64,000 bases of DNA from Spirochaetia bacterium (GCA_965203055.1 OZ241863.1:1312001-1376000); one strand, 5' to 3'. Counted from the stretch's first letter, positions 9,124 through 56,450 are shown. Notes: generated by a model from the sequence alone, not told the origin. Numbers and translations: made by a program.

Positions 9124-9129
9124 GAAGAC

Positions 9130-9158
9130 AATATACTCAAGAGATGGATCAGAGGCAA
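9130..9158 (-). promoter_or_regulatory. Sigma70-type promoter, leaderless geometry
   Basis: TTGCCT-17nt-TATATT-6nt-ATG(9123). Confidence 0.65.
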
Positions 9159-9191
9159 GCTTCATTCGATAATAAACTTTGCGAAGTGTGG

Positions 9192-9608
9192 TCACCGTAG
9201 ATCATCTACGCCGATCTCGCTCGTCATCAATATCCGAAGAAGCGATCTGAACAGCTCTTCCAATAATGCGGCCTTACGCCGATGGAAGTCGACGGCTTTG
9301 CGCACCTTGCTCAGCGCTTGCACGATGGCCTGTTGTTCGCGTTTCGGAGGTTGCGGCACGTTGAGCGCGGCCAGCCTGCTGCAGGACAGATTCGGGATCG
9401 TGGTCCTGTTGCCGGCGCCTTCGAAGATGCCGAGCTGCGTGAACGCAGACTGCAGGAAGTACACGTAGAAGCGGGGCTCCACGTCTTCAATCGGGCGCAG
9501 TCGATGCAGGTGATTCTGGAACGACATCGTTTCCACTTCGCCGTTCCAGATCGCCGCGCGGCCGATCTCGCCGCCTTCGCACACCAGCAGGTCGCCGGGC
9601 CGCAGCAG
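9192..9608 (-). pseudogene. hsdS: Type I R-M specificity subunit, C-terminal remnant
   Basis: [20 protein letters not shown]...FQNHLHRLR...TTIPNLS...[12 protein letters not shown]...[11 protein letters not shown]; only part of one TRD plus the conserved helix remains. Confidence 0.85.
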
Positions 9609-21030: not shown

Positions 21031-21104
21031 GGGCAATTAGCTCAGCTGGATAGAGCGCTGGCCTCCGGAGCCAGAGGTCGTGGGTTCGAATCCCGCATTG
21101 CCCG
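21031..21104 (+). tRNA. tRNA-Arg (anticodon CCG), CCA not encoded
   Basis: Acceptor stem GGGCAAT/ATTGCCC, D-arm GCTCAGCTGGATAGAGC, anticodon arm CTGGC-CTCCGGA-GCCAG, T-loop TTCGAAT. Confidence 0.97.
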
Positions 21105-22645: not shown

Positions 22646-23428
22646 TCACCGGTCTACCGGCTCCTGCCGATCCTCGCCGGGGCGGCCGAATCCGGCGCCG
22701 GCGTGGCGGTAGCGATGATGGGCGGCGCACAGCAGCCGGAGATTGTTCGGCTCGGCGCCGCCGCCGCAGGCATACGGCACGACGTGATCGATCTGCAGCA
22801 GGTGTTGGGAGCCGCAGCGGCGCCCGCTGATGCGGTCCACGTAGCGGCAGCGGCCCCGGTCGCGCCGCCACACCTCGCGCTTGACCGCCGCCGGGATGGC
22901 GCGGCCGGTCACGCCGCCCGGCTTCGCTGCCGAAGTTTCGGTCCGCGGCGGCGCAGCCGGCTGCGCGCACGCCGCAGCCGGCCGGCCGAGGCGCCGCGTC
23001 TTCGGCGCCGAAGTGGCGTCGGTCGCCGGCTTCGCTGCCGAAGTGTCCGGGCGGTCAGCGGCTTCGTCTCCCGGCTGCGCCGCCGCCTGAGCCGATGCCT
23101 TCGCCGCCGAAGGAGCGGCGCTGTCCGCGCCGGCCTCCTGCTTCGCTGCCGAGGCAGCGCCGCGAGCCGAGGCCGCCTGCGTCTTCGGCGCCGAAGTTTG
23201 CTCGGCGCCTTTGGCCGGCGCGGCGCGCCGCCCGCGCGGCGGTCGGGCCGGGTCGTGGCGGTCGAGCCCTTCCCGCACCAGCCGCCCCATGAGCTGCCCC
23301 AGGCGGCGCTTCTGAATCTCGCGCAGGTGGTCGATGCGGGAAAGTTCCTTGGTCCGCTCCAGCAAGCGGTCGTCTGAGAGGGCGGAAACGGTAGTGGTGA
23401 CGGCCCCGGCGGAAGCCTGATTGTTCAT
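22646..23428 (-). CDS. HNH endonuclease, paralogue of 7822-9123 with two in-frame internal deletions (possibly a pseudogene)
   Basis: Shares TTVSALSD.RLLER.KELS, GQLMGRLVRE and the HNH domain (LQIDHVVPYACGG...NLRLLCAAHH), but lacks EHELEVVVI and the whole segment between RRL and GQLMG. Confidence 0.8.
   Translation of the reverse strand: MNNQASAGAVTTTVSALSDDRLLERTKELSRIDHLREIQKRRLGQLMGRLVREGLDRHDPARPPRGRRAAPAKGAEQTSAPKTQAASARGAASAAKQEAGADSAAPSAAKASAQAAAQPGDEAADRPDTSAAKPATDATSAPKTRRLGRPAAACAQPAAPPRTETSAAKPGGVTGRAIPAAVKREVWRRDRGRCRYVDRISGRRCGSQHLLQIDHVVPYACGGGAEPNNLRLLCAAHHRYRHAGAGFGRPGEDRQEPVDR
22922..23196. repeat. Six dispersed copies of a 14-bp palindromic motif CTTCG(GC/CT/CC)GCCGAAG in the HNH linker
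   Basis: Copies start at 22922, 23000, 23030, 23099, 23141 (ends GAGG) and 23183. Perfect copies also lie at 8164 and 8302 in the other HNH gene. Confidence 0.85.
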
Positions 23429-23434
23429 GACATA

Positions 23435-23463
23435 AGTATAATCATGGAAACTACTTGAGTCAA
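23435..23463 (-). promoter_or_regulatory. Near-consensus sigma70 promoter, leaderless geometry
   Basis: TTGACT-17nt-TATACT-6nt-ATG(23428). Confidence 0.8.
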
Positions 23464-23609
23464 GTTTCGTCGGGCTAGGAAACCGCAAGCGGCGTGATTC
23501 AGGGAGCATTTCCAAGCGACTGGACGTTCCATCAGATGCTACTGCCGAGAATGTCGCGGTCGGCAAAAGGGCGCGATCTGCCGGGTACCGAGGGGCCGGC
23601 TTTCGGCGC

Positions 23610-23760
23610 CCGCAGCGGGCTTCGGCGCTGGCGCGGGCGGCGTTGAGGGCAAGCAGGCGGGCGAGCACTTCGTCGCGGACTCCGGCGCGGTCCATGGCGG
23701 CGTGCAGCGCGGCGCGGTACTCGTAGTACGCCTTGCCGGCGGCTTCGAGGGCGGGATCGG
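23610..23760 (-). pseudogene. Collapsed C-terminal remnant of a type IIG/IIL (Eco57I/MmeI-like) restriction-modification enzyme
   Basis: PALEAAGKAYYEYRAAL|HAAMDRA|GVRDEVLARLLALNAARA: three motifs that, as I recall them, are separated by tens of residues in intact enzymes, fused here. Confidence 0.6.
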
Positions 23761-23849
23761 TACCAACAAATTGGAAGCGCGCCCCCGCGCCTGGAGGCGC
23801 AAGACCGCCCACGGGAATTCCTGATAACCCGGTTTCGCGGCGCGAAGGC

Positions 23850-23877
23850 TTGACCTGATCGGCGGACCTGCTAAGAT
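23850..23877 (+). promoter_or_regulatory. Probable promoter of the NHLP precursor
   Basis: TTGACC-16nt-TAAGAT with TGC before the -10 box; SD GAGGAGAGG before ATG 23947. Confidence 0.5.
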
Positions 23878-23946
23878 TCGATGACCTAGTGAGCGGCACG
23901 CCGTCTCGCCTTGAGCGACGTCGCGTGAGCTGCCGAGGAGAGGAAC

Positions 23947-24224
23947 ATGGGCGAGAAAACGATGACCGCCAGTGCTCTGCGCCAGCACCTGATCGACAAG
24001 GCGACCGCGGACAGCGAGTTTCGCAACCAACTGGTAGCGGAACCCAAGGCCGCGATCGAGGCGGAAACCGGCCTCACCGTGCCCTCCGAGTTCAACGTCG
24101 AGGTGCACCAGGACACGGCGACTACCGGTCACCTGGTCCTGCCGCCTCCGCCGAGCTCGGAGAAGCCGATCTGGCGCAGGCCGCCGGCGGCTACGACTGG
24201 TCCACTTTTGGACAAAACTGGTAG
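23947..24224 (+). pseudogene. NHLP (nitrile hydratase-like leader, proteusin-type) RiPP precursor, 1-nt frameshift near 24146
   Basis: Leader LIDKATADSEFRNQLVAEPKAAIEAETG...VEVHQD...HLVLPP continues in another frame as SAELGEADLAQAAGG|YDWSTFGQNW* (double-glycine site followed by a 10-aa core). Confidence 0.85.
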
Positions 24225-24335
24225 CCGCCGGCCGCTACGGGTGTCCTGCCCCACCGGCGGGCACACTCAGCGCTATAGGCCGCCCCCGCCTGGTCTTGAT
24301 TGCCGCTCTCCGGATCATACTGCTACGATGCGGTA

Positions 24336-25412
24336 ATGAGCCCCGGACGCGAGTCCCGCCCCCGCTACGACGAGCGGTACAAGATGCTGTTCGCCTTCCC
24401 GCGCATGGTCCAAGACCTCGTGCGCGCCTTCTTCAGCGGCGAGCAGCTCGCTACCGTTGACTTCTCGACGCTGCAGAAGCTGTCGGCGGAGTACGTCAGC
24501 GACGAGTTGCTGAAGCGCCACGGGGACGCCGTATGGCGGCTGCGGGTGGGAGACGAGTGGGCCTATCTGCTGGTGCTGCTGGAGTTCCAGTCGCGCGATG
24601 ACTACTACATGGCGTTGCGCATCCTGGTCTACGTCAGCCTGATGTACCAGGAGTGGTTGCGCAACGAGAGTCGGAGGAGGCGGGACGGACAGGACGGGCA
24701 GGAGGCGCGCCGCTTGCCGGCGGTGCTGCCGGTAGTGCTCTACAACGGCACGGCGCCGTGGGACGCGCCGCAGGAAGTGGGCGAGTTGATCGCGCCGGTG
24801 GGGCAGTGGCTGGCGGCGTACCAGCCGGCGCAGCGCTACTTCGTAGTGGACGAGCAGCGGGTCGGGGCGGACACGGTGCCGCGCGGGAATCTGATGCGGG
24901 CGGTGGTGGGGCTGGAGCAGAGTCGGTCGCCGGAGGACTTGTTGCGGGTAGCGAACGCGCTGGCGGAGTGGCTGGCGGGGTCGGAACACGAGGAGTTGCG
25001 ACGGGTGTTCGAGGACTGGCTGCGGAGTTCGATGGAGCGGATCAAGCGGAAGGGGGAGAAGCTGCCGGAGATGAAGAACCTGGAGGAGGTACGGATGACG
25101 CTGGAAGATCGAGTGAAGGAGTGGCCGGCGCAGTGGATGCGGGAAGGCCGCGAGCAAGGCCTTGCGCAGGGACTTGAGCAAGGACTTGCGCAGGGACTTG
25201 AGCAAGGCCGCGAGCAGGGACTTGAACACGAACGAGCGCTGTTGCGCCGTATGGCAGCGTTGCGGTTCGGTGCGGAGGCCGGCGAGCGTGCGGCGGCTCT
25301 GATGGCGGATATCGGGGAAGCGGATCAACTGGCCGACGTCGGCGACTGCCTGGTGCAGTCCGGCGACGGCGACCAATTTCTGGCACGAGTAGCGTCTATC
25401 GCGCAGGCGTGA
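24336..25412 (+). CDS. Rpn family recombination-promoting nuclease / putative transposase (PD-(D/E)XK)
   Basis: DERYKMLF, HGDAVWRL, LLEFQS, MALRILVY, LPAVLPVVLYNG, C-terminal xEQG repeats; TACGAT-6nt-ATG start. Confidence 0.93.
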   Translation: MSPGRESRPRYDERYKMLFAFPRMVQDLVRAFFSGEQLATVDFSTLQKLSAEYVSDELLKRHGDAVWRLRVGDEWAYLLVLLEFQSRDDYYMALRILVYVSLMYQEWLRNESRRRRDGQDGQEARRLPAVLPVVLYNGTAPWDAPQEVGELIAPVGQWLAAYQPAQRYFVVDEQRVGADTVPRGNLMRAVVGLEQSRSPEDLLRVANALAEWLAGSEHEELRRVFEDWLRSSMERIKRKGEKLPEMKNLEEVRMTLEDRVKEWPAQWMREGREQGLAQGLEQGLAQGLEQGREQGLEHERALLRRMAALRFGAEAGERAAALMADIGEADQLADVGDCLVQSGDGDQFLARVASIAQA

Positions 25413-25532
25413 TGGCAGTCAGATCGTGCTCGGTGAGACGGAACCGCGCGAGTTGCGAGCGGACGAAGCTGTCGTAGACGTCGCCCAGGCGCTCCTGGTA
25501 TTCCTCGTCGAGGTCGTTGTGCCACTGCTTGA
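25396..25532 (-). pseudogene. pglX: Last ~44 codons of pglX (duplicate tail)
   Basis: KQWHNDLDEEYQERLGDVYDSFVRSQLARFRLTEHDLTAITPAR* matches the end of 30279-33920 with Q>E and F>Y changes. Confidence 0.92.
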
Positions 25533-25645
25533 CGAGTACCGGCAGCTCAGGAGCCAACCCAACGGCACGGCTGCGGCGGGCGGCGACGGGACCTGACGAC
25601 GCGCCCGAATCTGCCTGCGACCGCGGTGAACGAGGAGAATCCTGC

Positions 25646-26839
25646 ATGCCGGTGAATGCTCAGTGGCGCCCGTTGGCGGAGGTGCGCAAGGAGTTGCGGG
25701 TGCGGTGGTACCGCAGCCCGATCGAACCGGCGAAGCTGCGCGAGTTGATGCGACGCAGCGACCTGCGCGGCGCGTTCCAGGCCGTGGGGCACTTGGCGCT
25801 GGCCGCCGGCACCGGCGCGCTGACCTACTATCTGTTCACCCAGCGGCTGTGGGCGGCGTTCGCGCTGGCGCTGCTGTTCCACGGCGGCGTGACCAGCTTC
25901 TTCTTTGCCGCCTGCCACGAGCTGGATCACGGCACGGTGTTCAAGACCAAGTGGCTCAACCGCTTGTTCCTGCGCATCTACGCGTTTCTGGCGTGGTTCA
26001 ACTACCACGACTACGCGCTCAGCCACACCTATCATCACCGTTACACGCTGCACCCGGACGGCGACCGCGAAGTGGTGCTGCCCAAGACGCCGTCGCTGCG
26101 CGCGCTCTACCTGCTGCAGTTGTGCACCTTCAGCGTCACCGGCGGCTTCGAGTCCAACGGATTGATCCCGCTGCTGCACGGCGTGGGCGGCACCGCCTTC
26201 GGCTTCTTCCCCGGCCCTTCGGCGCGGAGCGCCCCGGGGGCTGCCGGGCGCGTCGGCGAGGCGTGGGTGCGGGCGCTGTACGAAGCTCACCCCGAGGAGC
26301 GCGCCAAGTCGGTGCGCTGGGCGCGGCTGACGCTGCTGGGCCATGCCCTGGTGATCGTTGCCGGGGCGGCGTCCGGACTCTGGCTGCTGCCGCTGCTGGT
26401 GAGCTTCCCGCTGCTGTTCGGCAACGTGTGGCGCTACTTCGTGGGCGTGCCGATGCACTGCGGTCTGCGCGACAACGTGCCCGACTTCCGCAAGTGCGTG
26501 CGTTCGATCACGTTGGACCCGCTGTCCACGTTCGTGTACTGGCGCATGAACTGGCACCTGGAGCACCACATGTACGCGGGCGTGCCGTGCTACAACCTGC
26601 GCCGCCTGCGCCGCGCGCTGGCTGCCGACCTGCCGCCGGCGCGCACGTTGTTCGGCGCCTGGCGCGAGATGCGCGCCATCTGGAAGCGGCAGCAGAGTGA
26701 GCCCGGCTACCAGTACGACACCCCGGTGCCGGCGCCGGCGCGCGCCGCGGCGTCCGCCGGCCGCAACGACGACGATGATGATCTCGGCGCCTCGATCGGC
26801 GACCTGGCGCCCGGGATCCTGGCCCGCGCCGGCGCTTAG
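25646..26839 (+). CDS. Fatty acid desaturase family membrane di-iron protein
   Basis: Histidine boxes HELDH, HTYHH, HLEHH and TM segments; SD GAGGAG before ATG 25646. Confidence 0.88.
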   Translation: MPVNAQWRPLAEVRKELRVRWYRSPIEPAKLRELMRRSDLRGAFQAVGHLALAAGTGALTYYLFTQRLWAAFALALLFHGGVTSFFFAACHELDHGTVFKTKWLNRLFLRIYAFLAWFNYHDYALSHTYHHRYTLHPDGDREVVLPKTPSLRALYLLQLCTFSVTGGFESNGLIPLLHGVGGTAFGFFPGPSARSAPGAAGRVGEAWVRALYEAHPEERAKSVRWARLTLLGHALVIVAGAASGLWLLPLLVSFPLLFGNVWRYFVGVPMHCGLRDNVPDFRKCVRSITLDPLSTFVYWRMNWHLEHHMYAGVPCYNLRRLRRALAADLPPARTLFGAWREMRAIWKRQQSEPGYQYDTPVPAPARAAASAGRNDDDDDLGASIGDLAPGILARAGA

Positions 26840-26872
26840 CCGGCCGCCCGGCGCAGGCTTACTCTAATCTAA

Positions 26873-27694
26873 CTAACGGTCGCCGCCGCCGATGGAGGCC
26901 AGCCCCCTGCGGAAGTAGGCCCCGACCGTGAAGTAGAGCACGATGACCGGCAGCATGTAGATCAGGCACATGGTCGCCAGCTTGGGGAAGTCCACGTCCT
27001 CGTCCAGTCCGAAGGCGGTGAACAGCCCCACGGAGACCGGGTACCGGTCGGTACTGCTGAGCAGCACCAGGGGCATGATGAAGCCGCCCCACGCGGCATC
27101 GAACGACAACACGCCCACCGCGCCGATTCCGGGCACGATGAGCGGCAGGACCACCGCGCGGAGGATCTTCAGCCGGGTGGCCCCGTCGAGTTGCGCCGCC
27201 TCCTCCAGTTCGACCGGCACGGCGTCGATCGAGCCCTTCATGATCCACAGGTTGAACGGCGTGGTGATGCCGACGTACACCAGGATCAGGCCGAAGTGAG
27301 TGTCGAGCAGCCCCAGCGCCAGCATCATCCCGAACACCGGTACGATGATCAGCGTCGATGGAATGACGCGGGTGAGGATGATCGCGTACATCAGCGTCGC
27401 CTTGCCGCGGAACGTGCCCCGCGACAGGGCGTAGCCGCCGGTCACGCTGGCGGCCAGCGCGAGCACGGTGGTGGAGCCGGCGATGAGCAGGCTGTTGCGC
27501 GTCCAGCGCAGGGTCTGTCCGGTGAACGCCGCGCGCAGATTGTCGAACGTGGGCTGCGCCGGGAGGCGCAACCGCAGATTCGCCTGCGTCGAGAGTGAGG
27601 TGAAGATCAGCCACAGGTAGGGCGCGAACACGTAGATCAGCAGGACCGCGAACGCCAGATAGACGGCGCCGCGCAGCAGCCTAGACCGCAACAC
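26873..27694 (-). CDS. Carbohydrate ABC permease
   Basis: ELEEAAQLDGA; multiple TM segments. Confidence 0.9.
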   Translation of the reverse strand: MLRSRLLRGAVYLAFAVLLIYVFAPYLWLIFTSLSTQANLRLRLPAQPTFDNLRAAFTGQTLRWTRNSLLIAGSTTVLALAASVTGGYALSRGTFRGKATLMYAIILTRVIPSTLIIVPVFGMMLALGLLDTHFGLILVYVGITTPFNLWIMKGSIDAVPVELEEAAQLDGATRLKILRAVVLPLIVPGIGAVGVLSFDAAWGGFIMPLVLLSSTDRYPVSVGLFTAFGLDEDVDFPKLATMCLIYMLPVIVLYFTVGAYFRRGLASIGGGDR

Positions 27695-28550
27695 GGTTCA
27701 GCCTGATGTAGAGCAGCCCCAGTCCCACCGTCAGCGCCAGAATCACGGTGCTCGCCGCGCCGGCGTAGCCGAGGGCCATCTGCTGGAACGCCTCGTTGTA
27801 GAGGTAGATGGCGAATACCTCGGTGCGCCCGAGCGGACCGCCGCCGGTCAGCCCGTACACCATGTCGAACGCCAGCAGGGTGCCGAAGGTGCTCATCAGC
27901 ACGGTCAGCAGGATGCTGTAGCGGATCATCGGGAGCTTGATTCGCAGGAAGGTCTGCCAGGCGGAGGCGCCGTCGATCTTGGAGGCGTCGTAGACGGTTG
28001 AGGGAATGCTCTCCAGACCTGACGACAGCAGGATGAACGCCACCGCCATGCCGCGCGACCAGTTGGCCATGAGAATGGAGATCAGCGGGTAGTTGCGCAG
28101 CCAGTCGATGCGCGTCAGGCCGATGAGCTGCAGCAGATCGTTGAGCGAGCCGTAGTCGACGTTCAGTACGCTGCGCCACATGTAGCCGACCACCAGGCCC
28201 GGCGTCAGCCACGGAATGAGCATGCTCACCGAGATCACCTTGGTGAAGCGGATGCGCGGCACTCTGATCAGGTTGGCATACAGCAGGCCAAGCGCGACGT
28301 GCCCGATCACGGCCAGCAGCACGAAGGAAAAGGTGACCGCGGCGCTGTTGTAGAAGTCGCGGTCCTGCAGCAGGCGCGCGAAGTTGCGCAGGCCGACGAA
28401 GCTCACCCCGCGGGTTGCATCGGCCCACAGGTTGAAGTCGGTGAACCCGAGGGCGAAGGTCCAGAAGAACGGCGCCACGAACACGGCCATGATCATGGCC
28501 AGTCCCGGCACGAGAAACAGATAGGGTTGTCGCCGCAGTCGTTGCGCCAC
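27681..28550 (-). CDS. Carbohydrate ABC permease
   Basis: FVGLRNF, VYDASKIDGA, LTGGGP. Confidence 0.9.
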   Translation of the reverse strand: MAQRLRRQPYLFLVPGLAMIMAVFVAPFFWTFALGFTDFNLWADATRGVSFVGLRNFARLLQDRDFYNSAAVTFSFVLLAVIGHVALGLLYANLIRVPRIRFTKVISVSMLIPWLTPGLVVGYMWRSVLNVDYGSLNDLLQLIGLTRIDWLRNYPLISILMANWSRGMAVAFILLSSGLESIPSTVYDASKIDGASAWQTFLRIKLPMIRYSILLTVLMSTFGTLLAFDMVYGLTGGGPLGRTEVFAIYLYNEAFQQMALGYAGAASTVILALTVGLGLLYIRLNRVAV

Positions 28551-28576
28551 CGGCGCGCCTTCAGCTTCCTCCCGCG

Positions 28577-29989
28577 CTAGAACTCGTAGTCCAGCTTGAC
28601 CCTGTCCGGCCCCATGAGCTGCTCCATCTCACGCGCGAAGTTGCGCATTGCCTCGACTGCGGTCCACTCGCCGATGATGATCCGGCCCACCGCTTCGCGG
28701 ATCGCATTGTCGGGGCCGCCGGCAAAGCCGGCCACGAAGTGCGGCTTCATGTAGGTGTATTCCAGCCAGGTGCTGGTCTCGGCGAGGAACTCGTTCGCCT
28801 GGAAGGTGGGGTGCCGCATCACGTCCCAGCGGGTCGCCGCCTGCCCCTTGGTGGCGTTGTACTTGGCCTGGCGCTCGGTGGCGGAGAGAAATTCGATCAG
28901 TTGCCACGCGAGGTCGGCCCGCTCGGTGCTGCTGGCGGGTATCATGTAGTTCCAGCCGCCCGACTGCGACACCCAGTCCTGCCCGCGGAAGCTGGCGCCG
29001 GGTTCCTTGGCCGGCATCCTGGCGTAGCCCACGGTCTCTTGCAGGTCGGGGATCGGGTGCGACCGGCCTTCGCTCCAGTGGAACATGTAGGCCCACGAAC
29101 CGTACAGGTTGATCGCGCCGGCGCCACTCTGGAAGGCCTCGATCGACCAGTCGTTGGCCTGTCCGCCAACCGCGCGCTCGGGATCGAGCAGGCCGCGCTC
29201 GGTCATGGTCTGGTAGAACTCGAACACGTCCAGGAGCGGCTGGCTGGCGACGATCCACTTGTCGTCGTCGTAGTCGTAGAGCTGGCCGCCGGCGCCGTTG
29301 AACAGCAGGTTGAAGCGGCTGAACGTTACCTGCCCGCCGGCTTCCTTGCCGCCGATGAACAGCAGCGGCGTGACCTCGGGGAGGGCGGCCTTGATCTGCT
29401 CCGCGGCGGCGAGGATCTCGTCCCAACTGGTCGGCTGCCAGTCGCGGTCGAGCCCGGCCTGGGCGAACAGGTCCTTGCGGTAGTAGAGGGGAATGGCGCT
29501 GGACTGAATCGGGATCATGTAGACGTGGCCGTCGTGGCCCATCCAGCGGACGAACGGGTCGATCACCTGATCCCACAGCTCCCAATCCGCCACGTAGTCG
29601 TCGAGCGGCATCAGAAACCCGGCGCGCATGTAGTTCTGCGAGCGGCCCGTTTCCTCGAACAACAGATCGGGCCCCTGGCCGGAGCGCAGCTCCAGGGTGT
29701 TCTTGGTGGCGTATTCCGCGTTCGGACCCGCGAACCGCTGCAGATCGACGGTTACCGGGGTACCGGCGGCGGCCATCATCCGCTCGAACTCCGCGACGTC
29801 GGCGTCGGTGTCGGCGTCGAAACCGGGTGTGTTGGGCCGCAGCTTGAAGGTGAGCACCACCGGCTCGCCCGGCTCGGCAGGCTCGGCCGCGGTTCCCTCC
29901 TGGCCGGCCGCGCCCAGCGGGATGGCGGCCACCCCGGCCAGCAACAACGCGGTCACTACGTACTTCGCGAGCTTGGCATTCATCATCAA
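28577..29989 (-). CDS. Carbohydrate ABC solute-binding protein
   Basis: Signal peptide, LYYRKDLFAQAG, PTSWDEI. Confidence 0.9.
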   Translation of the reverse strand: MMMNAKLAKYVVTALLLAGVAAIPLGAAGQEGTAAEPAEPGEPVVLTFKLRPNTPGFDADTDADVAEFERMMAAAGTPVTVDLQRFAGPNAEYATKNTLELRSGQGPDLLFEETGRSQNYMRAGFLMPLDDYVADWELWDQVIDPFVRWMGHDGHVYMIPIQSSAIPLYYRKDLFAQAGLDRDWQPTSWDEILAAAEQIKAALPEVTPLLFIGGKEAGGQVTFSRFNLLFNGAGGQLYDYDDDKWIVASQPLLDVFEFYQTMTERGLLDPERAVGGQANDWSIEAFQSGAGAINLYGSWAYMFHWSEGRSHPIPDLQETVGYARMPAKEPGASFRGQDWVSQSGGWNYMIPASSTERADLAWQLIEFLSATERQAKYNATKGQAATRWDVMRHPTFQANEFLAETSTWLEYTYMKPHFVAGFAGGPDNAIREAVGRIIIGEWTAVEAMRNFAREMEQLMGPDRVKLDYEF

Positions 29990-30050
29990 TCGCCTCCCTT
30001 ACGCTCTGCGCCGCCGTCCGGCAGCACTACACTGTCCGGCGGCGCCGCCT

Positions 30051-30079
30051 ATTGTGAACCGTGATCCGCGGTCTTGCAA
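30051..30079 (-). promoter_or_regulatory. Probable promoter of the ABC operon
   Basis: TTGCAA-17nt-CACAAT on the minus strand upstream of 29989. Confidence 0.45.
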
Positions 30080-30278
30080 ATGCGGGTAGGCGTTGGGGGG
30101 CGTCGGGCGGCTGGCGGCCGCGAACCGGACGTGACCCCTTGCGAAGATCTGCCGTAGATTGTCGGATCAACGGAATGCCGCCGCTATCTGATCGGAGCGG
30201 AGACGCCGCTCCGTCGCTGCTCACCCATTATCTGAGCGAGGCCATCGACATCCTTGATGGCCGAACCGGGGCTCGCTG

Positions 30279-33200
30279 ATGCCGATCGATCGGCGGGAGC
30301 TGCTGAGCGATCTGCGGCGGCAGCTCCGGCTGCTGGAGCGGGACCTGGCCGCGCGCGCCGACAGCGTGCCGGAAATGGCCGCGGCGCTGGAAGCGGAGTA
30401 TCAGGCGGCGCGCGCCGCCGAGCGCACCGCCGCCACCTTCCGCGTCTGGCGCGCCGGCGAACTCACCCAGGCCGCAGTCGCGTGGCTGCTCGGCGCCGTG
30501 TTCGTGCGCTTCATCGAGGACAACGGGCTGATCGACGAGCCGCTGATCAGCGGCCCGCACCGTGCCATCGATCGGGCGGAGGAGCGCCAGCTACGCTACT
30601 TTCGCTCCCATCCCACCGCGACCGACCGCGACTACCTGCTACACGGGTTCGCCGCCGTCGCCCGCCTGCCGGCGCTGGCCATGCTCTACGACCGCGCCCG
30701 CAACCCGGTGTGGCGCCTCGGCATCTCCGGCGACGCCGCGCGCGGCCTGCTGGAGTTCTGGCGCACCGTGAACCCGGACACCGGCGTGCTGCGCCACGAC
30801 TTCACCGACCCCGAATGGGACACTCGCTTCCTGGGCGACCTGTACCAGGACCTGTCCGACGACGCCAGGAAGCGCTACGCCCTGTTGCAGACGCCGGAGT
30901 TCGTCGAGGAGTTCATCCTGGAGCGCACGCTGACGCCGGCGCTGGAACAGTTCGGGCTGGCCGCAGTGCGCCTGATCGACCCGGCCTGCGGGTCCGGTCA
31001 CTTCCTGCTCGGCGCGTTCCAGCGGCTGCTGCGCCGGTGGCGCGCGCGCGAGCCCGAAGCGCCGAAACAGGAACTGGCGCAGCGCGCGCTGGGCGCCGTG
31101 CACGGCGTGGACGTCAACCCGTTCGCCGCGGCGATCGCGCGCTTCCGGCTGGTGGTGGCGGCGCTGCGGGCGAGCGGCATCAGGCGCCTGCAAGAGGCGC
31201 CGGCGTTCCCGCTCAACGTGGCCGCGGGCGACAGCCTGCTCCACGGACGCCGCTTCGGCGAGCTGGACCTGGGCAGCGGCGCGGAACAGCACGCGCTCAC
31301 CGGCCAGGCGGAGTTCGCGCACGCCTTCCAGTCCGAGGACCTCGAGGCCCTGAACCGCATCCTCGGCCGGCAGTATCACGTGGTGGTAGGGAATCCGCCC
31401 TACATCACGGTGAAGGACAAGGCGGTCAACCAGTTGTACCGCGCACGCTACACGACCTGCCACATGAAATATGCCTTGAGCGTGCCATTCGCCGAGCGAT
31501 TGTTCGATTTGGCGCTGCGCGGCGAGTCGGCCGGGTACGTCGGACAGATCACCTCCAACTCGTTCATGAAGCGCGAGTTCGGAAGAAAGCTCATAGAACG
31601 TCTCATGCCGTCGGTCGATCTCACCCACGTAATAGATACCTCGGGCGCGTACATTCCGGGGCATGGGACTCCGACGGTAATCCTCATCGGTCGAAATCAG
31701 GCGCCTGCTTCCGAAACGGTTCGTGCAGCGCTTGGAGTAAGGGGTGAACCGGAACCGCCGACCGATCCTGCAAACGGGAAGGTCTGGACTGCGGTTGTCG
31801 ACCAGATCGACTTACCCGGAAGCGAATCGGAATGGATGAGCGTGTCTGACGTATACCGCAAGACATTTTACGATCATCCCTGGTCGATCAGGGGCGGAAT
31901 AGCTCGAGAATTACAGAGTCACTTGGAGTCGGAGTCGCCGCTAGTACTCGATGAGATTGTTACCGACGTGGGTATTACGGCGGTTACCGGAGAGGACGGA
32001 TTATTCATCATCGGCGGCGATATGCTGGCTGCCCGGCGTCTTGGGGTAGAATCCGTACGCCCTTTGGTGATTGGAGACAACGTTCGCGACTGGACTACGG
32101 GTGGTTTGATCGCCGTCTGGCCCTATGGTGAGAATTACAGACTTCGTGACCTGAACGACATGCCTGGTGTAGCCCGGCTCTTTTGGTCATACAGAACGTC
32201 GATTTCATCCCGAAAACGATTTGGTACTCCGATGCTTGAGAAGGGCCTGTCGTGGTACGAATACCAAGAATTATATTTCAAGAAGCTTCGTTCCAATCTC
32301 TGTGTAGCATTTGCCTTCGTCGCTACTCACAATCACTTCGTACTTGACCGTGGTGGTAAGGTGTTCAACCGTTCCGCGCCGGTCATCAAGCTGCCGGACG
32401 ACGCAACCGAAGCAGATCACTTGGCGCTTGTCGGCTTGCTCAACAGTTCCGCGGCGTGCTTTTGGATGAAGCAAGTGTTTCACAATAAGGGAAGCACGGT
32501 AGACGTTCGCGGAGCTCGCCAAACGACCGATGAATATGAGAATTTCTATGAATACACCGGTACCGGATTGAAGCAGTTTCCGCTTCCACCGGAGCGGCCA
32601 GCGGACATCGCAGAGCAAATAGACCGTCTTGCCGCGGAGCGCCAATCTCATCTGCCGGCGCAACTGGCCGACCGCTTTCCCCTGACGCCGGAGGAACTGG
32701 ATGCTCACTGCGACGTTGCAGCTTCTCTGCAGGCGCGCATGATCGCCCTGCAGGAGGAGCTCGACTGGGAGTGCTACCGCCTCTACGGCCTCATCGACGA
32801 AGACTGCCGGTACTCCGCCGGCACGGGTGACCGCTCCGAACCCCCGCCGCTGGCGCTGGGCGAGCGCGCCTTCGAGATCGTCATGGCGCGGCGGATGGCG
32901 GCCGGCGAACTGCAAACCCGGTGGTTCGAGCGCCACGGTTCCACGCCGATCACCGAGGCGCCGGCCCACTGGCCGGAGGACTACCGCGCCCTGGTCGCGC
33001 GGCGCATCGAGCTGATCGGTTCCGACCGCTTCATCGGCCTGCTGGAAAAGCCGGAGTACAAGCGCCGCTGGAACACCGAACCGTGGGAGGATCAGGAACG
33101 GCGCGCCCTCCGCGCCTGGCTGCTCGACCGGCTGGAGTCGCCCGCCTACTGGCCGGAACCGCGGCTCACCACCGTCGGCGAGCTCGCCGCGCGGGCGGCT

Positions 33201-33920
33201 GCGGATGCCGACTTCCAGCAGGCCGCGGTCCGCTTCTCCTATCGCGCCTACGGCTACCTCGACGCGCTGGTCGCCGAGCTGGTGGAGTCCGAAAGCGTGC
33301 CGGCGCTGACGGCGCTGCGCTACAAGCCCTCCGGCCTGGCCAAGCGCGCCGACTGGGAGGCGGTCTGGGCCGCGCAGCGGCGCGAGGACGAAATCGACGC
33401 CGAAACGGCCGCCGCGACCCCTCGACTAGCCGGCGAGACCGAAGATCAGCATGCCGCCCGTCTCAAGGCTGAACAGGACCGCCGCAAGCGGGACGAGCTC
33501 GGCGACCTGGCGGCGCCGCCCAAGTACCGCGCGGCGGACTTTCTGAAAGCCGGCTACTGGCGCCTGCGCGGCGCCCTCGACGTGCCGAAGGAGCGCTTCT
33601 TCAGCTTGCCGGGCGTGAGCGGCGACGACGATCCCACGCTCCTGGTGGGCTGCGCCGGTTGGGATCACTTGACCCTCTGCCAGGCGCTGGCCGCCTACTA
33701 CAACGAGGCCAACGAGCGCGACGGTTGGAACGCGGCCCGGGCCGCCCCGCTGCTGGCGACGATCCGGGAGCACGTACCGTGGCTCAAGCAGTGGCACAAC
33801 GACCTCGACGAGGAATACCAGCAGCGCCTGGGCGACGTCTTCGACAGCTTCGTTCGCTCGCAACTCGCGCGGTTCCGTCTGACCGAGCACGATCTGACTG
33901 CCATCACGCCTGCGCGATAG
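30279..33920 (+). CDS. pglX: BREX-2 (Pgl) type adenine DNA methyltransferase PglX
   Basis: DTRFLGDLYQDLS...YALLQTPEFVE, DPACGSGHFL (SAM binding), GNPPY (catalytic), NSFMKREFG, VATHNHF, LDVPKERF, PWLKQWH. Confidence 0.92.
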   Translation: MPIDRRELLSDLRRQLRLLERDLAARADSVPEMAAALEAEYQAARAAERTAATFRVWRAGELTQAAVAWLLGAVFVRFIEDNGLIDEPLISGPHRAIDRAEERQLRYFRSHPTATDRDYLLHGFAAVARLPALAMLYDRARNPVWRLGISGDAARGLLEFWRTVNPDTGVLRHDFTDPEWDTRFLGDLYQDLSDDARKRYALLQTPEFVEEFILERTLTPALEQFGLAAVRLIDPACGSGHFLLGAFQRLLRRWRAREPEAPKQELAQRALGAVHGVDVNPFAAAIARFRLVVAALRASGIRRLQEAPAFPLNVAAGDSLLHGRRFGELDLGSGAEQHALTGQAEFAHAFQSEDLEALNRILGRQYHVVVGNPPYITVKDKAVNQLYRARYTTCHMKYALSVPFAERLFDLALRGESAGYVGQITSNSFMKREFGRKLIERLMPSVDLTHVIDTSGAYIPGHGTPTVILIGRNQAPASETVRAALGVRGEPEPPTDPANGKVWTAVVDQIDLPGSESEWMSVSDVYRKTFYDHPWSIRGGIARELQSHLESESPLVLDEIVTDVGITAVTGEDGLFIIGGDMLAARRLGVESVRPLVIGDNVRDWTTGGLIAVWPYGENYRLRDLNDMPGVARLFWSYRTSISSRKRFGTPMLEKGLSWYEYQELYFKKLRSNLCVAFAFVATHNHFVLDRGGKVFNRSAPVIKLPDDATEADHLALVGLLNSSAACFWMKQVFHNKGSTVDVRGARQTTDEYENFYEYTGTGLKQFPLPPERPADIAEQIDRLAAERQSHLPAQLADRFPLTPEELDAHCDVAASLQARMIALQEELDWECYRLYGLIDEDCRYSAGTGDRSEPPPLALGERAFEIVMARRMAAGELQTRWFERHGSTPITEAPAHWPEDYRALVARRIELIGSDRFIGLLEKPEYKRRWNTEPWEDQERRALRAWLLDRLESPAYWPEPRLTTVGELAARAAADADFQQAAVRFSYRAYGYLDALVAELVESESVPALTALRYKPSGLAKRADWEAVWAAQRREDEIDAETAAATPRLAGETEDQHAARLKAEQDRRKRDELGDLAAPPKYRAADFLKAGYWRLRGALDVPKERFFSLPGVSGDDDPTLLVGCAGWDHLTLCQALAAYYNEANERDGWNAARAAPLLATIREHVPWLKQWHNDLDEEYQQRLGDVFDSFVRSQLARFRLTEHDLTAITPAR

Positions 33921-35134
33921 ACGCTACTCGTGCCAGAAATTGGTCGCCGTCGCCGGACTGCACCAGGCAGTCGCCGACGTCGGCCAGTTGATCCGCTTCC
34001 CTGATATCCGCCATCAGAGCCGCCGCACGCTCGCCGGCCTCCGCACCGAACCGAAACGCTGCCATACGGCGCAACAGCGCTCGTTCGTGTTCAAGTCCCT
34101 GCTCGCGGCCTTCCTCGCGGCCCTGCTCGCGGCCCTGCTCGCGGCCTTGCTCAAGTCCCTGCTCAAGTCCTTGCTCAAGTCCCTGCGCAAGGCCTTGCTC
34201 GCGGCCTTCCCGCATCCACTGCGCCGGCCACTCCTTCACTCGATCTTCCAGCGTCATCCGTACCTCCTCCAGGTTCTTCATCTCCGGCAGCTTCTCCCCC
34301 TTCCGCTTGATCCGCTCCATCGAACTCCGCAGCCAGTCCTCGAACACCCGTCGCAACTCCTCGTGCTCCGACCCCGCCAGCCACTCCGCCAGCGCGTTCG
34401 CTACCCGCAACAAGTCCTCCGGCGACCGACTCTGCTCCAGCCCCACCACCGCCCGCATCAGATTCCCGCGCGGCACCGTGTCCGCCCCGACCCGCTGCTC
34501 GTCCACTACGAAGTAGCGCTGCGCCGGTTGGTACGCCGCCAGCCACTGCCCCACCGGCGCGATCAACTCGCCCACCTCCTGCGGCGCGCCCCACGGGTCC
34601 GTGCCGTTGTAGAGCACTACCGGCAGCACCGCCGGCAAGCGGCGCGCCTCCTGCCCGTCCTGTCCGTCCCGCCTCCTCCGACTCTCGTTGCGCAGCCACT
34701 CCTGGTACATCAGGCTGACGTAGACCAGGATGCGCAACGCCATGTAGTAGTCATCGCGCGACTGGAACTCCAGCAGCACCAGCAGATAGGCCCACTCGTC
34801 TCCCACCCGCAGCCGCCATACGGCGTCCCCGTGGCGCTTCAGCAACTCGTCGCTGACGTACTCCGCCGACAGCTTCTGCAACGTCGAGAAGTCAACGGTA
34901 GCGAGCTGCTCGCTGCTGAAGAAGGCGCGCACGAGGTCTTCGACCATGCGCGGGAAGGCGAACAGCATCTTGTACCGCTCGTCGTAGCGGGGGCGGGACT
35001 CGCGTCCGGGGCTCATTACCGCATCGTAGCAGTACGATCCGGAGAGCGGCAATCAAGACCAGGCGGGGGCGGGCTATAGCGCTGAGTGCGGCCCGCCGGT
35101 GGGGCAGGACACCCGTAGCGGCCGGCTGCTACCA
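33784..35134 (-). repeat. Right arm of ~1.3-kb inverted repeat
   Basis: See 24219-25532. This arm is 37 nt longer (three extra 12-bp units plus 1 nt). Confidence 0.95.
33904..35016 (-). CDS. Rpn family nuclease, second copy
   Basis: Nearly identical to 24336-25412; its 3' end overlaps the pglX 3' end by 17 nt. Confidence 0.93.
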   Translation of the reverse strand: MSPGRESRPRYDERYKMLFAFPRMVEDLVRAFFSSEQLATVDFSTLQKLSAEYVSDELLKRHGDAVWRLRVGDEWAYLLVLLEFQSRDDYYMALRILVYVSLMYQEWLRNESRRRRDGQDGQEARRLPAVLPVVLYNGTDPWGAPQEVGELIAPVGQWLAAYQPAQRYFVVDEQRVGADTVPRGNLMRAVVGLEQSRSPEDLLRVANALAEWLAGSEHEELRRVFEDWLRSSMERIKRKGEKLPEMKNLEEVRMTLEDRVKEWPAQWMREGREQGLAQGLEQGLEQGLEQGREQGREQGREEGREQGLEHERALLRRMAAFRFGAEAGERAAALMADIREADQLADVGDCLVQSGDGDQFLARVASIAQA

Positions 35135-36679
35135 CGTGGTGTGCGGGTCGGTGTAGGGGGAACGTTCGAAGCGGCAGTCCGGCTCGGTGACGCGGGGATC
35201 CTGCTGCGCGCGCAACGCCGCCAGCAGGCGGGAGGAAAGCTGCTCCCGGGTGGCGTCGCAGGCCGGGTCGCCGGCGATGTTGGTGAGGTAGTGGGGGTCG
35301 CGCTCCAGGTCGTACAGCTCCTCGGCGGGGAACTTGCCGAACCCCATCTCGAACAGCGCGCGCACCTCCGGCTCGGCGCGGTGATGCACCATCCACGCCT
35401 TCGACGGCGAACCGTCCAGGTCGGCGTAGGCGATCATGGTGTCCTCGCACAGCGACTCGAACGACGGCGGCGCGGCGCCGGGGTCGTCCAGGCCGCGCGG
35501 GTCGCCCATCGGCCAGCGCTCCGGCGCGAAGTTGCGAACGTAGAGATAGCGCCCGGTGCGAATGGCGCGTTGCGGGTAGGGCAGATTGCCGGCGCGCGCC
35601 CGCGCGACGTGGCGCTCGCGGCCGAGCACCACGTGGTCGCGGGCCGGGTCCACCAGCCCGGCGGCGGGCGATTCCAGCACCGGCAGCAGGCTGCGCGCCG
35701 TCATGCCCTCCGGCCGCGCGACCTGCGCCGCGTCGAGGAACGTCGGCGCCAGGTCCATCAGGTTGACGAAGTCGTGCACGATCCTGCCGCCCGGCACGCG
35801 GCCGGGCCAGCGCGCCGCCAGCGCCACCTCGCAGCCAAGGTCGTACAGGTTGCACTTGCCGCGCGGGAAGCCGGGAATGCCGTGGTCGCCGCTCACCACC
35901 AGCAGGGTGTCGTCCAGTTCGCCGATCTCCTCCAGCTTGGCGAGCAGGACGCCCAGGCCGGCGTCGACGGCCTGACACTCGCCGAGGTAGTCGCAGAAAT
36001 CCTCGCGCACGGCGTGCGCGTCGGGCAGGAAGGCGGGCAGACGCCCCTTGAGATCGTCCGGCTCCAGCCCCCAGAGCTGCTTGCCGGAGCCGCGCTGCCA
36101 CTTGCGGTGGGTGTTGGTCGGACCCCACCAGTAGCAGAACGGGCGCCCCGGCTCGCGCGCGTCGAGAAACGCCTGGAAGTTGTCGCGGGTCTCGTCGTAC
36201 AGGACCTGCTTGGCGCCCTCCACGCCGCGCTGCGGCGCAAGCTCGGAGGCGACGAACGAGAACTGGCCGAATCTGGTGCCGGCGGGGGCGTAGCGGGTGC
36301 GGTCGCCGCCGTAGGGGGCGTCGCGCGGGGTGCCCGGCGACCACACCTTGTAGGTGTAGCCAATGTGATAGCCGGCCGCCTCCAGCGCCAGCGGGTAGGA
36401 GGGGATGGAGGCGTCCCACTCGGCGCCCTGCAGGATCGCGCCGCGCCCGGTCTGCCAGAAGTAGCGGCCGCTCAGGATCGAGCTGCGGCAGGGGGTGCAG
36501 GAGGGCGCCGGCACGAACGCGTTGCTGAACAACGCCCCCTCGCGCGCCACCCGGTCGAAGTTGGGCGTGTCGATGACCGCGTTGGGCGTGCCGCCGCCCT
36601 GCAGTTGGCGGTAGGCGCCGGCGTAGCGCCCCCAATCGTCGGCGAACGCGAACACGATGTTGGGCCGGCGCCGCGCCAT
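35129..36679 (-). CDS. Cys-type sulfatase
   Basis: PNIVFAFADD, SCTPCRSSILSG, GDHG, KCNLYDLG; start trimmed to ATG 36679. Confidence 0.92.
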   Translation of the reverse strand: MARRRPNIVFAFADDWGRYAGAYRQLQGGGTPNAVIDTPNFDRVAREGALFSNAFVPAPSCTPCRSSILSGRYFWQTGRGAILQGAEWDASIPSYPLALEAAGYHIGYTYKVWSPGTPRDAPYGGDRTRYAPAGTRFGQFSFVASELAPQRGVEGAKQVLYDETRDNFQAFLDAREPGRPFCYWWGPTNTHRKWQRGSGKQLWGLEPDDLKGRLPAFLPDAHAVREDFCDYLGECQAVDAGLGVLLAKLEEIGELDDTLLVVSGDHGIPGFPRGKCNLYDLGCEVALAARWPGRVPGGRIVHDFVNLMDLAPTFLDAAQVARPEGMTARSLLPVLESPAAGLVDPARDHVVLGRERHVARARAGNLPYPQRAIRTGRYLYVRNFAPERWPMGDPRGLDDPGAAPPSFESLCEDTMIAYADLDGSPSKAWMVHHRAEPEVRALFEMGFGKFPAEELYDLERDPHYLTNIAGDPACDATREQLSSRLLAALRAQQDPRVTEPDCRFERSPYTDPHTTW

Positions 36680-36683
36680 GGGT

Positions 36684-37415
36684 TCAGCGTCCCTGGACGC
36701 GGTGCATCTCCGCAATCAGCTCCGCGGTCGGCGGATAGTAGCGGCCGGGGACCGCTCCCTCGGCGCGAATCTTCTCCTTGGCGTAGTTCTCGGCCGCTTC
36801 GTGCTCCAGCGCCCACTCCAGCGCCGCCGCGGCCATCCACGACGGCACCACCAGGACGCCGTCGTTGTCGCCGACCAGCACGTCGCCGGGCCGCACCAGC
36901 GCGCCGCCGCACTGGATCTGGCCGTTCTCCTCGGCCGGCGCGGCCGCCAGGCCGCCGTGGAAGCTGCGCTGCCGGGCGTACACCGTCAGCCCGTACTCCT
37001 CGTCGACGATCACGTCGAGGTCGCGGATGGCGCCGTCCACCACCACCCCGTCGGCGCGGTTCAGCGCGAGCTGCAGCAGCTTGACGTCGCCGGCGACCAC
37101 GTCCTGGCGGGAGCCCATGATGTCCGCCACCAGCACGTCGCCCGGCCCGCAGCGGCCCATTGCCCGGTACTCCAGCTCGTCTTCCCCGCCGGTCCGCTCG
37201 CTCATCAGGTCGGGGCGCACCGGGAGAAACCTGAGGGTGCGCGCCCGCGCCGCGAACCGCTGCCGGCCCGGCGTGAGGTTGATCACTCCCTCGCAGACGT
37301 TGAGCGGGGAGCCGAAGTGGCACACGGCGCCGTACACCGTCGCGGTCGGAATCGACTTCAGCCCGTCCAGCACGGGCTGCGGCACTTGCGCCGGTCGCAT
37401 GTCGAATGCTGGCAT
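36684..37415 (-). CDS. RraA-like / HMG-CHA aldolase family protein
   Basis: [45 protein letters not shown]; start trimmed to ATG 37415. Confidence 0.87.
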
Positions 37416-53690: not shown

Positions 53691-53692
53691 CT

Positions 53693-56368: not shown

Positions 56369-56450
56369 TCAAGTAATTGGGTCGATGAGCAGAGCGTATC
56401 CGCAGATACCCTACCTTGGCTGCCCCCGTGACGTGGAGGAGTAACCGGTA

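Follow-up and report, generated by a model that had tools for sequence, protein, structure and literature searches.

A 1.3-kb inverted repeat beside pglX in a Spirochaetia genome, a probable footprint of illegitimate duplication at the end of a pglX-rpn cassette

The locus reported here touches two kinds of described systems, the Rpn nucleases and the Pgl/BREX defence systems with their methyltransferase gene pglX. In the sections of Kingston et al. 2017 available to us (PMC5350276), overproduction of Rpn proteins increases recombination that does not need RecA; the authors propose that the polymerase switches templates at 3' ends made by Rpn, and suggest a role in the microhomology-mediated assembly of genome islands; the PD-(D/E)XK catalytic residues of E. 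coli RpnA are given there as D11, D63, E82 and Q84. The accessible text of Zhong et al. 2023 (PMC10400941) describes a separately translated C-terminal antitoxin, RpnS, with repeats 8-20 residues after its Met, and reports that RpnL is blocked only by RpnS of equal repeat number, the repeat region deciding antitoxin-toxin pairing in E. coli Rpn. The rpn genes in that text are without terminal repeats or target duplications, their ends vary, and their arrays come from tandem duplication (PMC10400941). We analyzed a 64,000-nucleotide (nt) stretch, hereafter the window, of the genome of a Spirochaetia bacterium (GCA_965203055.1 OZ241863.1:1312001-1376000), a repeat-rich, single-contig metagenome assembly of 4,557,819 bp. 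The window contains a 1.3-kb inverted repeat, each arm of which carries an rpn gene and the end of a pglX gene. Our reading, to which we assign a probability of about 0.72, is that a pglX-rpn cassette for phage defence was inserted here and that an illegitimate, non-programmed duplication of its end left this repeat behind.

Repeat search and MAFFT alignment revealed a single pair of reverse-complementary arms separated by 8.25 kb of DNA, and a whole-genome search returned the right arm as the sole full-length match of the left. The repeat search found the pair in three pieces: 24259-25228/34124-35093 (970 nt, 98%), 25128-25532/33784-34188 (405 nt, 92%, with an offset caused by the tandem repeat) and 24219-24262/35091-35134 (44 nt, 98%). 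The arm alignment spans 1351 columns, with 21 substitutions over 1314 aligned bases (~98% identity) and 37 gap columns, composed of a 36-nt indel within a 12-nt tandem repeat and one 1-nt indel. Each arm comprises 75 nt of outer flank, an intact gene for an Rpn (YhgA-like) nuclease and the last 45 codons of pglX, the latter covering DUF7008 positions 312-360 of 368. A preliminary description, made from the sequence alone, had presented the arms as diverged reverse complements, and every difference it listed (VQD/VED, SGE/SSE, TAPWDAP/TDPWGAP, six versus nine repeat units) is present. Its account of a full rpn gene and a pglX tail in each arm also holds (a PF04754 open reading frame, ORF, and a DUF7008 end of 45 codons plus stop), as does the attachment of a full pglX to the right arm only, where a 1213-amino-acid (aa) PglX, X1, matches the PADLOC PglX model (PDLC02529) over residues 3-1212 at 1627 bits. 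Its claim of a promoter in each arm fares less well: a consensus sigma-70 scan found 0 sites in the left arm, although all close rpn copies share a conserved TTGCCG-18 nt-TACGAT-like box at their abrupt 5' boundary.

Comparison with related genomes lacking the repeat, as the preliminary description had recommended, reveals that the cassette is missing in four congeners and that the desaturase-ABC block is oriented there as it is here. In congener G010 (89-91% nt identity), the counterparts of window positions 30079 and 35128 are only 27 nt apart, and, read in the direction of the window, the genes follow one another as left sulfatase, desaturase paralog, desaturase, two permeases, solute-binding protein, spacer and right sulfatase. 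The sulfatase/solute-binding-protein adjacency is also found in G009 (~147-nt gap) and G005 (~96-nt gap), while in G003 the two genes are parted by an unrelated 1-kb gene. Because the solute-binding-protein gene lies beside the sulfatase in four congeners, the segment 30080-35127, comprising pglX, the right rpn and the 75-nt flank, is shown by comparison, on sequence grounds, to be a ~5-kb insertion into a conserved sulfatase-ABC operon. In G010, the genes of the desaturase-ABC block stand in the order and direction seen here with respect to the sulfatases on either side, and this congener synteny makes the orientation of the 8.25-kb block against both flanks ancestral. A resemblance of the cassette left end to the G010 spacer was rejected as evidence, as 2170 of 3000 shuffles were as good.

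The left arm is bounded by two non-homologous junctions. At the inner one, the pglX tail stops at 25532 and, one base on, the last 22 codons plus TGA of a gene of another rpn subfamily (B) begin; seven full-length subfamily-B rpn genes elsewhere in the genome align from exactly the 25534 junction, at ~90%. This 25532/25534 junction is best described as an illegitimate, non-homologous fusion of two truncated genes. Microhomology amounts to at most 3 nt there and to 6-7 nt, TGGTAG[C], at the outer junction. Both outer ends lie at the TGG-TAG of the flanking genes and on a near-palindrome, as had been noted earlier; GTAGCnGCCGGCnGCTAC, which overlaps both outer TGGTAG ends, is found at those two places only in the 4.56-Mb genome. 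The left reading frame, belonging to an NHLP-type precursor gene, is by contrast not intact in the assembly, owing to a frameshift at 24144, where CC replaces the CCC of the NHLP paralogs. Contigs of four public runs carry the extra C, but are possibly paralog-derived; the frameshift is a probable 1-nt assembly error, 75 nt from the arm. The Trp-stop also ends three of the five NHLP-type paralogs, one of which reads TGGTAGC, making a 6-7-nt microhomology a reasonable explanation of the left outer junction. On the right, the G010 sulfatase ends in TGGTAG with no insertion there, so the right-arm TGGTAG is native to the sulfatase.

The space between sulfatase and desaturase on the left side varies across the genus and here also holds a multicopy HNH-gene element and the NHLP-type precursor gene. 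The 417-aa HNH-domain gene of this element lies at 22646-23899 (and again at 7822-9195), and window positions 23000-23300 match 37 other genomic places over the whole length at 82-98%. The NHLP-type precursor family counts six members, with a leader conserved up to ...AQAAGG and hypervariable, Trp-rich core peptides that include YDWSTFGQNW, IDWSFTPPALPYG, MGWSFQW and FSWDNVGW. A tRNA-Arg(CCG) at 21031-21104, one gene away from the zone receiving the left arm, is identical over ~75 nt in two congeners.

We propose a three-step origin for the repeat. As the congener comparison shows, a ~5-kb cassette of pglX and a convergent rpn entered between the sulfatase and solute-binding-protein genes. The outer 1.3 kb of this cassette, comprising the 75-nt flank, rpn and the last 113 nt of pglX homology, would then have come to lie again, inverted, 8.25 kb away, at the variable spot beyond the ancestral desaturase-ABC block. 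The copies have since diverged, as their alignment shows, chiefly by three extra four-residue repeats. The second step could have taken place through a partial copy patched in by template switching or break repair, or through a whole inverted cassette that was later trimmed by deletion. Trimming of a whole copy has precedent in the decayed pglX-rpn pairs elsewhere in the genome: at genome 258520-259804, an rpn with an in-frame TAG is followed by a 74-nt spacer encoding a natural pglX end and then 78 nt of pglX tail, and 3' of pglX paralog X2 a mere 50 nt of an rpn 3' end are left. The earlier suggestion that a pglX-rpn unit was duplicated and one copy then mostly deleted stands insofar as the junction was duplicated; the bulk of pglX was either lost from the left side or never there. 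The right arm is taken as the source because it is continuous with the complete pglX, and the left arm would be the derived copy. The ragged left-copy junctions fit the picture drawn by Kingston et al., and the locus offers a clean natural case of an rpn duplicated with ragged, microhomology-type junctions of the sort that those authors suggested Rpn might promote.

Several points weigh against this reading. The direction of copying is not proven from the flank: when the outer 75 nt of the right arm were compared with the 27-nt G010 spacer, 349 of 3000 shuffles scored as well, and the candidate identification of these 75 nt as native sulfatase flank was rejected as evidence. Partial copying and whole copying with later deletion are indistinguishable, and the part of Rpn in making the duplication is circumstantial. 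The left TGGTAG may be native to the NHLP-type gene or may have been brought by the copy, and the position of both outer ends on an in-frame Trp-stop is a striking coincidence, which microhomology explains only if the NHLP-type gene already ended so. The public contigs, finally, are short metagenome contigs that break in repeats, and none of them spans an arm.

A different origin would be two independent outside acquisitions of related pglX-rpn cassettes, of which the left one decayed. Defence cassettes are often gained repeatedly and five pglX paralogs are scattered in this genome, yet the 75-nt outer flank is common to the two arms and occurs nowhere else in the genome, and the arm divergence given above stands against ~5-14% nucleotide difference among the constant regions of the pglX paralogs. 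Ending twice on one hexamer would, moreover, need an undescribed site-specific mechanism, and we regard this origin as decidedly improbable.

Public sequence data bear on the assembly itself. The stretch was found in 17 rows from 7 studies of public runs, including sponge and marine metagenomes and two coded organisms, all in the form of assembled contigs; four of them, placed on it, gave short fragments ending inside repeats. Contig "joints" listed for the runs were discarded, their sides being 20-30 nt at 92% and lying in multicopy genes. The left arm might be an assembly artefact in which a strain variant of the right arm was put in the wrong place, a thought invited by the single-contig metagenome assembly of a repeat-rich organism, by the probable 1-nt error 75 nt from the arm and by the fact that no listed contig bridges the left junctions. 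The arms, however, are set apart by 21 substitutions and an in-frame indel of 36 nt with both rpn frames intact, and the left arm has two unique junctions, including the truncated-gene fusion, which would not come from a collapse or duplication error. Contigs of run X12 cover 26567-30341, crossing the cassette left end with no difference, and 35013-35700, crossing the right outer junction. An artefact is hence, in our judgment, hardly credible.

According to the preliminary description, recombination between the arms would invert the desaturase-ABC-pglX block and could swap pglX C-terminal alleles. Inversion is formally possible with 1.3-kb arms of ~98% identity, and the presence of recA in the genome would permit occasional homologous inversion, without obvious consequence; nothing, on the other hand, points to its being used as a functional switch. 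In a programmed invertible segment, flipping of the block would alternate PglX tail alleles or change how pglX or the operon is expressed, and pglX indeed belongs to the gene families with the strongest enrichment of programmed inversions in the available portion of Milman et al. 2023 (PMC9881135). There, the repeats are short and lie in the variable middle of pglX, a recombinase gene adjoins, and several variants appear in the reads; the known pglX switches exchange the protein middle and carry a recombinase (PMC9881135). Here, no recombinase was found among the 38 window ORFs scanned, and genome-wide searches returned two tyrosine recombinase matches (PF00589), both at 2.39 Mb and more than 1 Mb away, and 0 serine recombinase matches (PF00239). 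The arms hold PglX residues ~1170-1213, which belong to the constant part rather than to the variable recognition domain at ~480-800. The pglX start, its upstream region and the recognition domain all lie inside the invertible segment, and an inversion would leave the PglX recognition domain and promoter unchanged. The swap of C-terminal alleles reduces to two residues, Q/E and F/Y, at which the left tail has the variants of other paralogs. The present orientation is that of the repeat-free congeners, so that a segment capable of flipping would have been assembled in its ancestral state. A programmed switch is therefore highly improbable, and the locus illustrates that a large inverted repeat touching pglX should be called a phase-variation switch only where a recombinase and a variable segment open to exchange accompany it.

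Both arm ORFs match PF04754 (Transposase_31/YhgA-like) with 80 bits against a cut-off of 21, over profile positions 3-197 of 203. By this match, their products are members of the YhgA-like PD-(D/E)XK nuclease family, with predicted nuclease activity; candidate motifs YDERYK, HGDAVW and LLEFQS are present in both translations. The right rpn is convergent with pglX, their 3' ends overlapping by 17 nt. Comparison of the two translations reveals seven differing positions in addition to the three repeat units. Each gene contains a candidate internal RpnS-type frame, preceded in both copies by the Shine-Dalgarno sequence GGAGGAGG, which ends 5 nt upstream of the internal Met (25095/34257). The four-residue repeats begin 18 residues past this Met in both copies, within the range of 8-20 given in the accessible text of the family analysis (PMC10400941), and the variable repeats fall in the region common to the long Rpn protein and the internal short form. 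Because the copies carry six and nine repeats and the published specificity depends on repeat number, they are probably non-interchangeable, and are predicted to act as two non-cross-reacting toxin-antitoxin defence genes. The pair offers a ready natural test of the repeat-number specificity rule of Zhong et al.

Frames of the Rpn family occur at ~67 places in the genome (74 ORFs of at least 150 aa, from which an Rpn hidden Markov model was built). Six are close relatives of the arm genes: three in tandem (87-95% nt identity), one at genome 258520 (88%, in-frame TAG) and two at ~74%. All six start at TCTTGATTG (window 24294), 75 nt inside the arm, and end sharply 8-12 nt past the stop codon (window 25416-25420). 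So many rpn places in 4.56 Mb, the sharp unit ends shared by close copies in three separate contexts and the TGGTAG at both outer ends of the repeat might point to Rpn as an autonomous mobile element that copied itself and its flanks into a preferred TGGTAG/hairpin target. The common unit, however, stops 75 nt short of the outer end of the arm, the hairpin is limited to two places in the genome, and neither the outer 75 nt nor the TGGTAG/hairpin is found in any of the six other close copies. In the flanks of eight compared copies, neither terminal inverted repeats nor target duplications accompany rpn, in agreement with the family analysis as far as its available text extends (PMC10400941). 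With the right TGGTAG native to the sulfatase as well, we consider such an element quite improbable. The earlier idea that Rpn moved to a TGGTAG/hairpin site is thus not borne out: the TGGTAG-hairpin left end, whose sharing among Rpn copies had been named beforehand as the point to check, is present in 0 of the six.

An insertion sequence or composite transposon was likewise rejected, as the desaturase-ABC "cargo" is native and syntenic in congeners and no outer-end duplication extends beyond TGGTAG, itself native on the right. A general two-gene PglX-Rpn module was rejected too. In this genome, an Rpn ORF lies within 1.5 kb of three of the five pglX copies, a count reached by 102 of 20000 random placements, but rpn was found beside pglX at 0 of 8 loci in three related genomes (tblastn, plus or minus 1.5 kb) and at 2 of 72 loci of PglX relatives in other genomes, one strong and one weak match to the Rpn hidden Markov model (plus or minus 4 kb). 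This scarcity in relatives and elsewhere makes the pglX-rpn pairing local to this genome.

Other rpn copies stand near defence genes. In a type I restriction system (L063:8497-12339; genome 1713897-1717739, minus strand), the three tandem copies (413, 362 and 390 aa, with differing repeat numbers) occupy exactly the interval from hsdR to hsdM, the slot expected for hsdS, for which no search was made. The Pgl locus contains a C-terminal rpn fragment of 130 aa (L058:17499-17891; genome 3168499-3168891, minus strand), flanked by the GmrSD-type gene and pglY, that is 70% identical to arm copy residues 239-366 and is a candidate free-standing RpnS-like remnant. In the related genome G012, two pglX fragments, at 143058-144364 (residues 1110-1207) and 1881895-1883045 (residues 640-741), each lie less than 500 nt from an rpn, and four tandem rpn genes lie 6-10 kb from a TAG-broken pglX; these cases give hints that the association of pglX fragments with rpn recurs in G012.

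The window pglX is one of five intact PglX paralogs (X1-X5), the other four being 82-86% identical to it. X1, by its matches a gamma-class adenine methyltransferase of PglX type, has Eco57I/MmeI methylase domains and a C-terminal DUF7008 (E 3e-140; Pfam), and its N372-P-P-Y375 (NPPY) is invariant among 10 aligned sequences. Comparison of window ORFs with Pfam and PADLOC found no pglW, pglY (brxC-like) or pglZ near X1 within the window; the neighbours of X1 are metabolic genes, and the single Pgl core is 1.8 Mb distant. Only X3 stands within a Pgl/BREX type 2 locus (genome 3.15-3.18 Mb), which encodes PglW (1363 bits), PglX, a type IIG-like methylase, a GmrSD-type enzyme, the rpn fragment, BrxC-PglY (1473 bits) and PglZ (684 bits), leaving four of the five copies as orphans. 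Another PglZ-domain match is present at genome 530823-531344. The arrangement recurs in two related genomes, with one pglX in the locus and four orphans in G012 and one and two in G010, whereas G011 has one copy, in the locus; each of the three has a single PglW and a single PglZ. Among PglX relatives from other, non-spirochaete phyla, PglW and/or PglY lie beside pglX in 60 of 62 loci, the exceptions being a 1.8-kb contig and one 8.7-kb locus.

Identity among the five paralogs is distributed unevenly along the protein: residues 1-470 and 801-1206 are 91-97% identical, compared with 48-60% for residues 480-800, bar one pair at 82%. In trees of 13 PglX copies, the constant N and C parts group copies of one genome together, whereas the variable part groups copies of different genomes, pairing X1 with two G012 copies (~69%), X4 with a G010 copy (69%), X5 with a G011 copy (79%), and X2 and X3 with a G012 copy (70-75%). 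Such clustering is the mark of constant parts that evolve in concert around old recognition-domain lineages, and it accounts for a 113-nt pglX tail that is 96-97% identical at all copies. By extension, though we think it unlikely, one Pgl core in this spirochaete lineage could serve several dispersed, intact orphan PglX "specificity" paralogs whose constant parts are kept alike in each genome by gene conversion and whose old recognition-domain lineages are retained across species, with Rpn nucleases at the 3' ends supplying seeding breaks; the inverted repeat would then be a fresh by-product and the stray tail a usable recombination handle. In full-text literature searches, we found no description of one Pgl core with up to four orphan PglX of differing recognition domains. 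MANTIS (2026 preprint) was set aside as not relevant, since the methylase class in its available text differs. The multi-PglX arrangement occurs in three related genomes and, if all copies are active, would let one defence engine read several motifs.

Elsewhere in the window, a lower-GC stretch (46005-58043, 59-64%) encodes three proteins: one of 2561 aa whose N-terminus is sacsin/TmtA-like, an SNF2 helicase of 891 aa that aligns along its entire length with PADLOC DrmD (948 bits), and an AAA_22 protein of 530 aa. No methylase adjoins this stretch, which by its gene content is probably another defence system.

Table 1. Coordinates of the inverted repeat, the genes it carries and their surroundings (window positions unless marked as genome)
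Feature	Position	Strand	Description
Left arm	24219..25532		75-nt outer flank, rpn gene, 45 pglX codons on minus strand (repeat search, alignment)
Right arm	33784..35134		Continuous with full-length pglX (repeat search, alignment)
Left outer end	24219..24238	+	TGGTAG = Trp-stop of NHLP-type core peptide YDWSTFGQNW; overlaps near-palindrome GTAGCCGCCGGCCGCTAC
Right outer end	35115..35134	-	TGGTAG = Trp-stop of sulfatase; overlaps near-palindrome
NHLP-type precursor gene	23947..24224	+	Leader ATG 23947; -1 frameshift at 24144 in assembly
Left rpn gene	24336..25412	+	358 aa from ATG 24336; ORF open from TTG 24300; PF04754 E 2e-22
Right rpn gene	33904..35016	-	370 aa from ATG 35016; PF04754 E 2e-22
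Left-copy repeat units	25149..25220	+	Six 12-nt (four-residue) units: REQG LAQG LEQG LAQG LEQG REQG
Right-copy repeat units	34096..34203	-	Nine 12-nt units: REQG LAQG LEQG LEQG LEQG REQG REQG REEG REQG
Left candidate internal RpnS-type antitoxin frame	25095..25412	+	105 aa, MTLEDRV...; basis, rule in the available text of PMC10400941
Right candidate internal RpnS-type frame	33904..34257	-	117 aa; Shine-Dalgarno sequence same as left
pglX tail remnant, left arm	25396..25532	-	45 codons + stop, cut at ~PglX residue 1170; DUF7008/PADLOC PglX matches
rpn 3' fragment, other subfamily	25534..25600	+	Last 22 codons + TGA, joined to pglX tail
Block between arms, ancestral part	25663..29989	.	Fatty-acid desaturase (+), two ABC permeases (-), solute-binding protein (-); Pfam
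pglX-rpn cassette	30080..35127	.	~5.05 kb, not present at this site in four congeners
pglX paralog X1	30279..33920	+	1213 aa, orphan BREX type 2/Pgl-type adenine methyltransferase
PglX paralogs	Window 30279-33920; genome 1969838-1973488, 3160119-3163790, 3530346-3533999 (-), 2761868-2765578		Loci L044-L047 for the latter four
Sulfatase	35129..36715	-	Ancestral upstream neighbour of solute-binding-protein gene

The origin of the repeat is most likely ordinary, a new example of known Rpn behaviour, and the interest of the locus is in its two diverged Rpn copies and their multi-PglX background. The arm genes resemble the RpnL/RpnS nucleases of Kingston et al. 2017 and Zhong et al. 2023 in their PF04754 domain, their gene-within-gene layout with an internal Met and Shine-Dalgarno sequence, their 12-nt repeats 18 residues past that Met and of copy-variable number, and the lack of terminal repeats and target duplications. 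Tandem arrays (here three copies between hsdR and hsdM) and a location beside defence genes are further common traits. They differ in that the copy took 113 nt of pglX and 75 nt of flank with it and lies inverted, 8 kb away, the published rpn duplications being tandem and direct in the text available (PMC10400941), and in the ~67 family members of one 4.56-Mb genome.

The BREX type 1 pglX inversions of Lacticaseibacillus rhamnosus and Brevibacterium casei are similar in having inverted repeats that involve pglX coding sequence and in their constant N- and C-termini around a varying middle. In the present locus, by contrast, the repeat covers the constant tail and a neighbouring gene, there is no recombinase, and the recognition domain is not exchanged. 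With Pgl/BREX type 2 (pglW-pglX-pglY-pglZ, Streptomyces coelicolor), X1 shares a full-length match to the PADLOC PglX model, and X3 lies between PglW and BrxC-PglY/PglZ; X1 differs in not being clustered with pglW, pglY and pglZ. With the allelic exchange of recognition domains in Type I hsdS and Type III mod genes, the PglX set shares conserved flanks, swapped old recognition-domain lineages and homogenisation of the flanks by recombination. Its alleles, however, are whole, dispersed, intact genes within one chromosome, neither divided between strains nor kept as silent partial cassettes beside an expression locus. The repeat itself is akin to microhomology templated insertions and inverted duplications in its ectopic inverted copy, its 0-7 nt of junction homology and the quasi-palindrome at the junction. 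In classical snap-back template-switch products, the two arms adjoin around a palindrome, whereas in this locus 8.25 kb of native DNA separates the arms, and each palindrome is at the outer end of its arm.

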